A stretch of 64,000 bases of DNA from Mobula hypostoma (Eukaryota), in assembly GCF_963921235.1 (NCBI RefSeq), contig NC_086097.1, positions 91,762,001 to 91,826,000 on the forward strand, in the 5' to 3' direction. Positions 34,401 through 39,984 of this stretch are shown here, piece by piece (position 1 is the first letter of the stretch; each line of letters begins with the position of its first letter). The translations under genes and the position numbers were made by a program. The notes under the pieces are model-generated. The model searched no databases. It was given only the letters and a program-made list of their open reading frames with translations, and was not told where the DNA came from.

Positions 34401-36221
34401 ACCTGTGTGGATGAGTGTGTGCCTAAGAAAACTTGCTGTACAATCCCAAACCAAATGCTATGGATGAACCAGGAGGATCGTAGTGTGCTGAGGGCTAGAC
34501 CTGTGGCAATTAAGTCTAGCAACCCAAGTTAGTACAAGAAAACCAGGTATGACTTGCAGAGAGCTATTTCAAGAACTAAGAAACAATTCTGAGCGAGGTT
34601 GGAGGCGATATTGGATGCATATCAACTCTGGCAGGGTTTGCAGGACATTACTTCCTACAAAGCACAACCCTATAGCATAAATGGCAGTGAAGCTTCACAA
34701 CCAGATGAACTCAATGCCTTTTATGCATGCTTTGAAAGGGAGAATATAACTACAGCTGTGAAGATCCCTGCTGCATCTGGTGACCCTGTGACCTCTGTCT
34801 CAGAGGTCAATGTCAGGTTGCCTTTCAGGAAGGTGAACCCTTGCAAGGTGGCAGGCCCCAATGGAGTATCTGGTAAGGCTCTGAAAGCTCGTGCCAACCA
34901 ACTGACGGAGACATTTTCAACCTCACACTGCTATGGTTAGAAGTTCCCACCAGCTTCAAAAAGGCAACAATTATACCAGTGCCGAAGAAAAATAGTGTGA
35001 GGTGCTTTAATGATTATTGACCTTAATGGCCAGTAGCACTCATAGCTACAGTGATGAAATGCTTTGAGAGGTTGGTCATGGCTAGAATCAACTCCTGCTT
35101 CAGCAAGGACCTGGACCCACTGTAATTTGTTATCGCCACAATAGGTCTACAGCAGAAGTAATCTCAAAGACTCTTCACACAGCCTTAGCTCACCTGCACA
35201 TTACAAACAGCTATGTCAGAATGCTGTTCATCAACTATAGCTCAGCATTTAACACCATCATTCCCATAACTTTGATTGATAAACTACAGAACCAAAGCCT
35301 CTATACCTCCTTCTGCATTTGGATCCTTAACTTCCTAACCGGGAGACCACAATCTGTACAGACTAGTAATAATATCTCCCACTCACTGACAATCAATACT
35401 GGCACATCTCAGAAATGTGCTTAGCCTACTGCTCTATTCTTGCTATACCCATGACAGAGTAGCCAGGTAGAGCGCAAAAGCCATCTATAAATTTGCTGAT
35501 GATATAACCATCATTGGCAGAATCTCAGATGGTGACGGGAGAACATACCAGAGCGAGAGATACCAGCTCACTGAGTGGTGGCGCAGCAACAACCTTGCAC
35601 TTGATGTCAGTAAGACCAAAGAGTTGATTGTGGACCTCAGAAAGGGGAAGACAAGGGAACACATACCAATCCTTATAGAGAGATCAGATGTGGAAAGAGT
35701 GAACAATTTCAAGTTTCTGGGTGTCAGGTTGTCTGAGGATCTAACCTAGACCGATCATATCAATGCAACTATAAAGAAGGCAAGACAGCAGCCATATTTC
35801 ATTAGGAGTCTGGGGAAATCTGGTTTGTCACCTAAAACACTCAAAAACTTCTACATCACTGTCTGGTATGGGATTGAAAGGAGCTGCAGAAAGTTGTAAA
35901 ATTAGTCAGCTCCATCTTGGGCACTAGCCTCCGTAGTATCCAAGACACCTTCAAGGAGCAGTACCTCAGAAACACAGCGTCCATTATTAAGAACCCCCAT
36001 CACCCAGGACATGCCATCTTCTCATTGTTACCATCAGAAAGTAGGTACAGAAGCCTGAAGGCGCACACTCAGCTTCTTCCCCTCTGCCATATGTGCCTAA
36101 ATGGATTGAACCCATGAACACTACCTCACTTTTTTATTACTTGTTTCTGCACTATTTTTAATTTTATATATCACACACACACTTAAATTTTTTTGCTTAT
36201 TTTTTTCTTTATTATCAAGTA

Positions 36222-36588
36222 ATAAATTATAGGTAGTAGGTAGTGGGTATTGGCTCCTCATGTCACTACTACAGGGTGTGATGACCCTGCCTTACACGAA
36301 TCCCGGGCTCAGCTGGCTCCGGCTGACAGTACCCGGTATGGGCCCCTATCCAGGGTTACGGATCCCACTGCCTTATGGGTATCTTCGGGAGAAGAGAAAG
36401 CTAAGGAGTAAACCCTACACAAATCCGGAGTAGAGCCCCTACGGCGGTTGGATGACGTATCACGTCACCTCCCGCAGCTAAGCTGATGCCAAATGTACTG
36501 CTTCGCATTCCTTAGGACTACATCCGCGAGGCCGAGAGGGAGATCTTGATGTCTGGGTAGCCCAGGATCTCCATATTTATCGCCATGA
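36222..36588 (+). mobile_element. Short non-coding retroposon (probably RTE-related), ribozyme-headed
   Basis: 11-bp TSD ATTATCAAGTA at 36211-36221 and 36589-36599. GC-rich, hairpin-rich body with no ORF in the track. Confidence 0.75.
36233..36304 (+). ncRNA. HDV-like self-cleaving ribozyme fold (probably CpG-decayed)
   Basis: P1 GUAGUAG (36233-39) / CUACUAC (36266-72). P2 GGG(U)AU / AUCCC. P3 (U)GGC / GUC(A). L3 UCCUCAU. P1.1 position AG. P4 UGUGA / UUACA. J4/2 C36297-GAA. Confidence 0.6.
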
Positions 36589-36642
36589 ATTATCAAGTAT
36601 TCGATTGTACTGCTACCACTAAGTTAACACATTTCATGACAT

Positions 36643-39600
36643 CATCATCATCACCATCAGGTGCCATGCCCAGTTTGAGCTTTGACTGCCATGGCACACA
36701 CACTCCTGTTTCATATCAAGTGGATCAATTCATTGGTATTCATTTCCAATTCTCTGGCTGCTGCCTCCATCATCATTTGTCTTTGTCTTCCTCTTGCTTT
36801 CTTCCCTTCAATCTTTCCCATAATTACCGTGCATTCTAACTCCTCTTTCCTAATCACATGTCCAATGAATTTATGTTGCCTTTTCGTGATCTCATACATT
36901 ATTTCTCTTTTTGTGTTTGCTCTGTTCATGACATCCTCATTAGATATTCGTTTCGTCCACAATATTCTTTGCATCCTCCTCAAAAACCACATCTCTGCTG
37001 CTACATTCATTTCCTCATGTTACTAGATATTGTCCAACATTCTGAGCCATAATACATCTGGATAAACGTAACATTTCAGTACTCTGAGGCAGGTTGTCAT
37101 GCCTAGTTTAGTATTGGTCAGTATACTCTTCATTCTCGTAAAGGTGTCTTTTACCATCCCTATTCTTCTTTTGATGTCCATGTCGCACTTGCCATCTGAT
37201 GTCACCAAGCTTCCGAAGTAGCAAAAGTTCTGTACTTGTTTTTTGTCTTCCCCGTTTATTCTCAGCCTGCAGATAGGATTCTCCTCCTTTTTGGATATCA
37301 CCATACATTCTGTCTTTTTGCAATTGATAGATAGACCCATTTTTGCACTTTCTTCAACGACTATATCAATAAAGTTTTGTAGTTCTTCCTCCGTACTTGC
37401 AATTAATAGTGTCATCTACATACCTGAAATTATTGATGATTTCACTGCCAACTTTGATTCCCAAGATGTCTCTTATTTTTTTGTAATATTGTTTCACTGT
37501 ACACATTAAATAAATCAGGGGAGAAAACACACCCTTGTCTAACGCCTCTCTTGATTTTAGCAAACTGACTCACTTCTCCATCTATTCTTACAGCGGCAGT
37601 TTGTTCTCAGTACAGATTTCTGATTAGGCGGAGGTCTTTCGAATCTAGATCTAGAGTTTTCTGTAATATTTCAAACAACTTAATGTGCTTCACTTTAGCA
37701 AATGCTTTTGTGTAGTCAGTAAAACAAACAAATCTTTTTGCACTTGAATAGCTCGTTCTGATAGTATTCTTAACATCAATATTGTATTTCTTGTACCTTT
37801 GTCTTTCACAAAACCATTGTTCTTTACCTATTTCAGTTTGCACCTTACTTTTAACTCTTGTCATCAAAATTCTTAGAAGTATCTTGATGATATAACTCAT
37901 TAAACTTATGGTCCTATGTAAATCACATTCTATTGCTCCAGGTTTCTTAGGAAGAATGATAAATACTCATCTCTTCTGGTATTATTCCAGTCTCATAAAT
38001 GTCATTGATTAAATCAGTAAGTTTTTCAATTCCATAATCTTCAAGGGTGATAATTTGTTCTATTACTAATTCATCAGGACCTGCTGCCTTTCCGTTCTTC
38101 ATCTTATTTATTGCATTACGATCTTCAGATTTTAAAATACCTGGACCTTCAATGTTCTTCTTAATTTCTGGTTTTTCGCCTCGATCATCTTCAAACAATT
38201 CCTGAATATACTCAGTCCATCTGTTCATAATCTCATCTTTTTCCATGATAATGGTACCGTCCTTTGCTTTCAAACATCCACCTGAAGAACAGAGGAGCTT
38301 TTTACCAGTGATATTCTTGATTTGTTGATGTAACCTTTTTGGATCAGTAATAGGGATTCTTTCTATTTGCTCACATTCCTGGTTTAACCATTCTTCTTTG
38401 GCTTTTTGACATAAGCTTTTAACTTTTTTATCTGAGGACTTATATTCTATAGAATTTGCTTTCTTCTGTCTCCTTTCTTCCATTAGATTTTTGATTTCAT
38501 CTGTCATCCATTTATTCTTTGAGCTTTTTTCTTTTTTCTCCCCCACTGACTTTGCTGATTCTACCAAGGCATCTTTTAGAGAGTTAAACTTCATTTCTAC
38601 AGGATTGCTATCATCTTCAACAGATTCTATTTCTAGACTTTGAAATCTATTCCTTACTTCAATTGTAAATTTTTGTCTTAAGTTTTCTTCTTTAATTACA
38701 AGTAGTCAGGGGATTGTTCAGGTTTTTGCTTCTTTAGTTTTTTAAGTTTTACTTTTACATGACATATTACCGGGTTATGGTCACTATTACAGTCTGCGCC
38801 TGGATAAATTTTGCATTGAGTCACTTAGTAATAAAGTCAATTTGATTTCTAGTGTTATCACCTGGACTTTTCCAGGTCCACAAGCATCTTGGATGGTTTT
38901 TAAAGTGGGTATTCATAATGACCTGATTATTCATCTTGCACCATTCTACCCATTTCTCACCTCTTTCATTTCTTTCCCCTAGTCCAAATTTTCCTACGGT
39001 ATTTCCATCAGCACCTTGTCCTACTTTAGCATTTAGATCTCCCATGACAATAACAGTATCTTGAGATTTGCATTCATGCTTTGCTTGTTCAAGCTCTTCA
39101 TAGAATTTATCTATATCCTCATTTGTTCCATCTGTTGTTAGTGCATATACCTGTATACTTGCTAAATCAAATGGTTGTCCTCTGAATCTAACAAGGAGCA
39201 CTCTTTCTGATGTTGCCCAATGTCCTAAAACACTTTTTGCCATGTTTTCTTCCATAAGAATTCCTACTCCATTAGTAGGGGATGTTCCACAAGAATAAAT
39301 TAGTGTTTTATTTCTATTCTGACATGTTCCAGCACCTATCCAATGAACTTCCCTAATTCCCATGATGTTAATCTTTAGTCTTTCCATTTCATTTATCACA
39401 TTGTCCAATCTTCCTGCTTGATATAGGGTTCTTACATTCCAAGTGACAATAATTTTCTTTTGTGTTACTTGAATTTTATGAGCAGTAGCTTGATGACGGT
39501 CAGGGATCCCCTGCTGACCAGAATCAACCCTACCGAGTGAAGCATCTTCAGAATTGTCTTGAAGATCCTTTTGATGCTGTTGCTGTGTGATACATTTTGT

Positions 39601-39984
39601 GAGTTTGACCAAGGTTTTCTTAGCAAATAGGTTCCAGGAAACCTAGTATCTAGCAACAGTGGTTTGCTATTGCCTACCGTTGGGTGAACCAAAGAAATCA
39701 CCATTTCTCTTCCCAAATGTTCATCCGCCTGTACTATAGCCGTTGACATTTGAGGTTCTAGCTCATCCATCTTCTCCGTCATAAGTTGAGTTACTGAACC
39801 TGCTGGCTTTGCTGTTGGCCTTCACTCGTATCCTGAGCAGGAACCCTTGCAGGTGCTACCATTCCGGGTCAGAGCGGCCCTGGGAGCAATGGATGACTAA
39901 GGGGTAACTCCACTTTCCCCAAAGCTCTGAAAGTCCCCAATCAGAGCCTCATCACCCATTGCAGTTTAAAATCATACCCAGGAC
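36643..39984 (-). mobile_element. Near full-length RTE-clade LINE (APE + RT), frameshifted
   Basis: IVTWNVRTLYQAGRLDNV..EMERLKINIMGIREVHW; VIVMGDLNAKVG; WTWKSPGDNTRNQIDFI; KAAGPD; FTDYTKAF..VKH; INNFRYVDD; AAEMWFLRRMQRI; IEGKKARGRQR; (TGA)n tail at 36643-36660. Confidence 0.93.

Follow-up and report, generated by a model that had tools for sequence, protein, structure and literature searches.

The window analysed here is a stretch of 64,000 nucleotides from Mobula hypostoma (contig NC_086097.1, positions 91,762,001 to 91,826,000, forward strand), and our subject is a short insert at its positions 36222-36588 that an earlier note had read as a non-coding retroposon headed by an HDV-like ribozyme. 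The sequence bears out the description of the insert itself: it is bounded by an 11-bp target-site duplication (TSD), ATTATCAAGTA (36211-36221 = 36589-36599), the motifs on which the ribozyme fold was built are in place (GTAGTAG at 36233-36239, TCCTCAT at 36255-36261, CTACTAC at 36266-36272 and CGAA at 36297), and so are the hairpins named further downstream. Its parts are as follows.

36211..36221 (+): left target-site duplication, 11 bp, identical to 36589-36599
36222..36231 (+): 10 AT-rich nt at the 5' junction, of unexplained origin and foreign to the family (no match in the family consensus)
36232..36238 (+): extra GGTAGTG-type unit (GGTAGTA), which holds the G1 and the 5' strand of P1 of the proposed ribozyme (unit counts in 69 copies)
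36239..36269 (+): family head, comprising a pair of GGTAGTG units plus a simple hairpin with stem GTAGTGGC/GTCACTAC and family loop TCCATAT (per-column counts; predicted fold)
36239..36584 (+): part of the RTE partner's 5' UTR, corresponding to consensus positions ~2-357 (consensus matches the first 374 nt of five full-length LINEs at 93-96%)
36582..36588 (+): junction of the window copy, where the GCC microhomology is followed by the 3'-terminal bases of the LINE (alignment)
36589..36599 (+): right target-site duplication, 11 bp (sequence)

The window copy is an incomplete, damaged member of its family. About 55 nt of the family's 3' part are missing, with the GCC microhomology (36582-36584) at the break, and both arms of the 5'-3' helix described below as well as the 3' hairpin have gone with it; because the 3' hairpin is lost, this copy is probably dead now. 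Its 5' UTR part carries a 10-nt deletion after 36473 and a G>A change at 36300, within the CGAA of the proposed ribozyme. Per-column counts identify two further changes in the head, G>T at 36250 and AT>TC at 36258-36259, the former of which lies behind the proposed P2 and is otherwise found only in one copy 352 kb away. The insert sits inside the 3' region of a decayed LINE (window 34593-36220, + strand, with a weak reverse transcriptase (RT) match at 35471-35746), which may be Rex1/Babar-like. An unrelated RTE-like LINE of nearly full length (~36620-39900, - strand) has its tail about 30 nt from the insert; this LINE was considered as the partner and ruled out by its different 3' end and an RT identity of 28%.

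The insert is a repeat. A first look gave 1508 candidates in the 3.5-Gb genome, 40 of which were scored, the others being 90-93% identical, and a 19-nt pattern from the head has 306 exact matches. The majority sequence of 44 aligned short copies is 412 nt long, and the copies diverge from it by 2.6% outside CpG and by 16.8% at CpG. Two GGTAGTG units are present in 56/69 copies, three or more, as in the window, in 4/69. The 5' ends are sharp, with 93 of 120 copies beginning at reference position 1-2; TSDs of 6-15 bp flank 42 of the 49 copies whose tail was located, and ATT/ATG-type microsatellites form the 3' ends of the short copies. Variable TSDs together with a 3' microsatellite are what is expected for insertion by target-primed reverse transcription, and the TSD lengths agree with the range of 7-15 bp given for RTE in the pertinent part of PMC6007223. 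The same head occurs on contigs of four other organisms, with CpG- or decay-type changes only, none of them listed in L3 at a 10% threshold. The copies descend from near-identical masters, which, together with the purely decay-type changes in the other organisms' heads, bears on the proposed P1-P4 covariation test. Some irregularities were seen at individual ends. At the 5' end of L035 the head is duplicated about three times, and L023 has four units, suggesting re-priming at the 5' junction. The two bases preceding the element are usually T and then a purine (T 35/56, G 29/56, A 22/56 in the insert's family, F1), and the junctions of the related family F3, introduced below, look similar. An inverted second copy within ~750 bp was found in two cases (L005, with the second match at 2248-2317, and G000:C2:220490561 with 220491311).

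By way of a longer derivative, L026, we arrived at the autonomous partner of these copies. All five LINEs fetched, 3.8-4.0 kb in length, share their first 374 nt (93-96%) and their last 36-38 nt with the short form, so the 412-bp element has a two-part structure, 374 nt of 5' UTR followed by ~38 nt of 3' end. The earlier suggestion of a non-autonomous, SIDE-like element mobilised by an RTE partner is upheld by these full-length relatives, and so is the absence of a Pol III head, since no tRNA was detected in any of three loci scanned and the head is the LINE's own 5' end. Pieces of the LINE encode an AP endonuclease and an RT (PF03372 and PF00078, Pfam matches on pieces of L112), and the frames are broken in all five fetched copies; among the top relatives, single proteins of ~1040-1050 aa that combine endonuclease and RT are frequent. 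By eye, the 5' UTR resembles positions 134-237 of RTE-12_AMi (supplement of PMC5786205). This likeness suggests the RTE clade for the partner, as do the shortness of its 3' UTR and the single-protein build of its relatives. The insert's family is thus a bipartite, non-autonomous LINE of the SIDE type, probably of RTE, and the insert is one of hundreds of such short elements. ORF-less bipartite derivatives of RTE have already been described, namely Bov-A, MAR4_MD, WALLSI3 and RTESINE2 (PMC5786205), and the text of PMC7245038 bearing on the matter calls the bipartite type common for RTE.

The ribozyme itself fared differently. The earlier note had placed G1 at 36233 and a catalytic C at 36297, and had ascribed the departures from the HDV core to CpG decay. 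At the level of the family the fold fails, its P2, L3 and J4/2 having been drawn on changes that are nearly private to the window copy, and the same register carried over to the consensus has at least eight departures. The L3 of HDV-like ribozymes has a conserved U..C.CG core, and their P2 is preceded by a C-N-R-A joiner. The family's L3 is TCCATAT (T in 120/131, A in 129/131), the first base of P1.1 is A in 130/133 copies and the joiner reads CGAG instead of CGAA (G in 132/136); neither UCCUCGU nor CUAC-GG is restored in the consensus, and decay of CpG does not account for the departures. A true CpG nearby has kept its C in 107/135 copies and its G in 118/135. Among the 100 head matches listed, the loop is TCCATAT in 93, TCCACAT in 4 and TCCATGT in 3; the CpG-restored L3 had 0 matches across 3.5 Gb. 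An older, CpG-restored subfamily was also considered and dropped, there being none in the genome, including none among the 6 matches of a second L3 search, in which the window's TCCTCAT proved unique. A C at L3 position 24 occurs in 8/131 copies, which is above background. Nor do 5' ends pile up at G36233: the copies start about 6 nt downstream, 56/69 of them having two units. Where a P2 of at least 5 bp would be expected after the joiner, as for HDV-like ribozymes in PMC3774820, the consensus CGAG-UCCC has no partner strand. The same source, in the part concerned, reports that R2 ribozymes tolerate much variation, that the conserved G of L3 takes part in a G-U reverse wobble, and that a wasp R2 ribozyme no longer cleaved once this G was changed to A.

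How readily such a fold arises by chance was judged with a descriptor of our own, built on HDV/CPEB3 features and not taken from a published file. The proposed fold has 4 departures in the window copy, and 24/150 dinucleotide shuffles of the same 150 nt score 4 or fewer. With R2-type slack the window copy scores 3, a level that 6/82 shuffles, in this case of the family consensus and not of the window copy, reach or better somewhere; under the same slack 5 departures is the best that the consensus can do at its 5' end, a score matched by 17/82 shuffles. Alternative HDV registers through CUGA-CAG were set aside, with 5-7 departures and at chance level. It is the make-up of the head, a repeat plus a hairpin, that allows P1 and P3 to be drawn, and in two other copies the head is predicted to be a plain 9-bp hairpin. 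Rfam returned no match in the window or over the heads, and this blank is uninformative because the same search also missed the motifs of families F3 (3 loci) and F2 (2 loci), which served as positive controls. The family head is therefore likely to lack a working HDV ribozyme. A more general warning may be drawn, namely that a single decayed copy of a repeat-plus-hairpin head can imitate the HDV fold.

Judged by sequence, the HDV-ribozyme hypothesis does fit a sister family in the same genome. This family, F3, is a second RTE family with 1850 first-look candidates, mostly short and two-part among the copies printed (L092-L111, L231-L280). It is sister to the insert's family in an RT-region tree of 15 rows (support 94/99, not starred), from which 5 of 20 candidates with no RT match had been left out. 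Its HDV motif has a single departure and puts G1 at the element's first base (P2 GUAGU/ACUAC, P3 GCC/GGC, L3 UCCUCGCU, CUGA and a J1/2 of 160 nt), and no shuffle of the window head or of the family consensus reached 2 departures or fewer. The F3 junction is a variable GAT/ATC palindrome. The heads of the outgroup F2/F2b have, by eye in 6 copies (L047, L053, L056, L057, L058, L061), an HDV-like core with a hairpin inserted in L3. HDV-like ribozymes are known in non-LTR elements, RTE included (cited in PMC5786205 and PMC6765202). Since F3 carries a canonical HDV motif at its 5' end, the insert's family has probably lost an ancestral ribozyme and kept the motif GTAGTGGGTAGTG, the only clear likeness between the heads (p ~0.002 with F3, where it lies inside J1/2, and 0.015 with F2); the kept motif perhaps serves as a promoter. 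A weak likeness of the family head to the F2 ribozyme core under relaxed gaps (p 0.03-0.05 in 2/3 settings) makes a dead ribozyme relic in the head possible. The head was also considered as what is left of P2-P3 of the F3 ribozyme after collapse, a notion dropped because there is no significant alignment beyond the 13-nt motif.

The site at which the two parts of the element meet is where the family is most variable. In the LINE, TGCGCCC(CGG) in the 5' UTR can pair with (CC)GGGCGCA ~40 nt from the 3' end, and in copies sampled without regard to their junction 45/58 join inside the loop of this helix; several of the other 13/58 are truncated, carry a secondary insertion or break at most a few tens of bases off. 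Exact patterns gave 278 fused matches vs 10 for the unfused 5' side and 21 for the LINE-type 3' side, a rough ratio given that the patterns are of unequal length. The loop has 47 sequences of 0-25 nt in 126 short copies, most of which were found by a pattern needing both helix arms, and 107 copies with near-complete heads fall into 20 coarse junction classes, the largest with 26, 19 and 16 members. Extra LINE sequence may be confined to one side, with 4 copies keeping 15 nt from the 5' side and 2 keeping at least 9 nt from the 3' side; many loops have extra A's and some junctions carry added bases. Four control hairpin loops of the same element have deletions in only 0/104, 0/106, 1/109 and 1/113 copies. 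Varied junctions in the helix loop suggest repeated template jumps on intact or trimmed LINE RNA, and in vivo template jumps have been described for R2 (PMC3414825). Deletions in two rare long classes could have given rise to most junction classes. Two breaks of other kinds may be added: L084, L161, L165 and L169 form a secondary cluster at the end of the next small 5' UTR hairpin (GGAG..CTCC), and the longer derivatives L026 and L052 have the same 3' break, which lies 98 nt before the end.

The helix itself is modest. It has 9 bp, is equalled by 55/2000 shuffles, and has rivals in four further regions within the first 900 nt of the LINE that pair no worse; among single decayed copies it is reached by <5% of shuffles in only 4/13, and in an energy test of 6 copies it was mostly not significant. 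A related LINE copy has 14 bp at the same site, equalled by 0/300 shuffles. No clean covariation is to be had because both arms are conserved motifs. Markers of lineage are mixed as well: 351T occurs across many junction classes and in one full-length copy, is enriched in one class (10/26), and another rare class shares a marker in 3/3 copies; changes are shared within classes at p=0.002, and at p=0.11 once 351 is left out. The neighbours L132 and L133 have variants in common on both sides of the junction and differ in their loops, which means that conversion, or some event after insertion, can alter the loop. In our search of open-access text we found no paper on an end-pairing helix in RTE or on recurrent junctions; subscription papers on Bov-B SINEs and RTE ribozymes, or Repbase, may have it.

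Lineage markers are confounded by gene conversion, of which the copies bear likely traces. Among 90 copies of the insert's family with coordinates, derived non-CpG changes shared per pair average 1.74 for the 19 pairs lying <2 Mb apart, 1.28 for the 18 pairs at 2-5 Mb and 0.22-0.25 for distant pairs (p=0.001). F3 behaves alike, with 4.75 per close pair (8 pairs) vs 1.2-1.4 (p=0.001) among 62 copies, the 2-5 Mb class there being not significant (p=0.07). Close pairs (<2 Mb) thus share ~8x as much as distant ones in the insert's family and 3-4x in F3; examples are L175/L176/L177 (C2:85.5-86.8 Mb), L132/L133 (C1:48.0-49.0 Mb) and L094/L101 (C96), and one trio shares its changes in a mosaic that fits no tree. 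Segmental duplication was rejected because the flanks are unrelated in the 7 close-sharing groups printed, and local hopping because 14/78 gaps are <2 Mb vs 12.6 expected (p=0.37). Gene conversion is favoured over local hopping since flanks are unrelated, copies are unclustered and one trio is mosaic. Gene conversion among neighbours over megabases is thus likely in two families; an assembly artefact is possible. No paper on conversion of such repeats over megabase ranges was found in open-access text.

The explanation we favour, and hold to be rather probable, is that the insert is a damaged, two-part RTE element made of a 5' UTR and the last ~40 bases, that its head likely has no HDV ribozyme, and that the short form likely recurs by an RT jump across the predicted helix. 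After loss of the ribozyme, Pol II would make RNA from the LINE's own 5' end, with GGTAGTG as a candidate promoter element. The RTE enzyme would then prime at the 3' microsatellite, copy ~45 nt and jump the 3.4-kb loop at the helix; alternatively, with the RNA in two pieces, each trimmed as far as the helix, it would cross from the end of one piece to the end of the other. In the process 0-4 untemplated bases would be added. Some of the resulting short copies would act as masters in trans, and after insertion neighbours on the same chromosome would exchange sequence by gene conversion. The window copy would have jumped further, or been deleted further, at the GCC microhomology. A bolder version, which we offer only tentatively and would not expect to hold in full, has RTE LINE RNA forming rings through the short 5' UTR-3' UTR helix, so that most insertions skip the coding region and the "SINE family" is largely a recurring by-product, whose copies in addition convert their nearest neighbours across megabases.

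The variety of junctions might instead have arisen at the DNA level. If one short master or a few had been amplified in the manner of SINEs, and the RTE enzyme's requirement for both arms had preserved the helix, the loop could have been diversified later by slippage, repair and gene conversion. The dominance of a few classes (26, 19 and 16 of 107), the existence of class-linked markers, the more than tenfold excess of short forms over LINE ends and the case of L132/L133, which share flanking variants yet differ in the loop, all speak for this. We nevertheless think it unlikely: stronger hairpins of the same element are almost free of loop deletions, some classes have LINE-only sequence on either side of the junction, the tree is nearly star-like with most rare classes having no shared private change, and selection alone would not limit the breaks to a few bases on both sides.

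A further group of alternatives concerns the head. It could be a strongly altered, still active self-cleaving RNA, either a squeezed HDV type or a ribozyme of some other class, and its cleavage would then account for the sharp 5' end seen in 93/120 copies. The HDV motifs of the relatives, the weak likeness to the F2 core, the wide variation among R2 ribozymes (so described in PMC3774820) and, as read from the consensus, a CUGA in the head followed by a strand that pairs 6/7 bases with the second GGUAGUG unit are all consistent with it. Yet the best 5'-end consensus fold has 5 departures with 17/82 shuffles equal to it, L3 has neither the conserved C nor the conserved G, J1/2 plus P2 would not fit beside two units, and the predicted fold is a plain hairpin, which together make an active head improbable. 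Less probable still, to the point where we give it little credence, is the original proposal of a family headed by an HDV-like ribozyme with G1 at 36233, catalytic C36297 and departures owed to CpG decay. The pairings can be drawn in the window copy with 3-4 departures, C at L3 position 24 exceeds background, and RTE ribozymes are known (cited in PMC5786205); but the genome has no restored L3, the fold needs near-private changes and an extra repeat unit, the consensus stands at no fewer than eight departures, and the score is at chance level against shuffles. As far as sequence comparison can decide, this proposal is largely refuted.

Taken together, the type of element is already known, and the ribozyme reading is unsupported for the insert's family. 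Why only a few LINE clades yield two-part derivatives is stated to be unknown in the passage of PMC5786205 that raises the matter, and the helix as a jump point is a candidate cause. This cause can be separated from the ribozyme because the insert's family makes miniatures without one. If true, the ring model would explain the frequency of two-part RTE elements with ~40-nt tails, no ribozyme being needed. As for the neighbours, their range of conversion would, if true, be a hundred times that for Alu; if it is indeed conversion, the sharing among them would distort the subfamily trees and ages of repeats and would provide a natural read-out of the reach of homology search in the vertebrate germline.

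The closest known systems are the bipartite RTE LINEs. Bov-A, MAR4_MD, WALLSI3 and RTESINE2, as presented in PMC5786205, likewise combine a 5' end with about the last 40 nt of a LINE, have no ORF and no head from an RNA gene, and carry TSDs and a microsatellite tail. In the relevant portions of PMC5786205 and PMC7245038 they are treated as families that arose by internal deletion of unknown cause, whereas here many junctions crowd at a 5'-3' helix. RTE-12_AMi of the alligator (3904 bp) is alike, by eye, in having the shared 5' UTR block at ~134 vs 146 from the 5' end and a similar total length, a comparison confined to 104 nt with the head outside that stretch. The R2 SIDEs and R2/R1 SIDEs of Drosophila (PMC3414825) are also internally deleted LINEs that keep both ends, and template jumps are discussed there as one origin. 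They differ in having tested HDV ribozymes and in being site-specific, and their authors, in the text concerned, favour recombination; the insert's family has no ribozyme core and inserts widely. With the HDV-like ribozymes of other non-LTR elements, the likeness lies in the 5'-end motifs of F3 and F2, whereas the head of the insert's family fails the core features. Finally, neighbouring Alu copies undergo non-allelic gene conversion over a range of ~10 kb (Aleshin and Zhi 2010, as cited in PMC8230782 and PMC6598467). There, too, neighbours share non-diagnostic mutations, and the sharing declines with distance, but what spans ~10 kb in Alu extends to 2-5 Mb in the sparse families described here.
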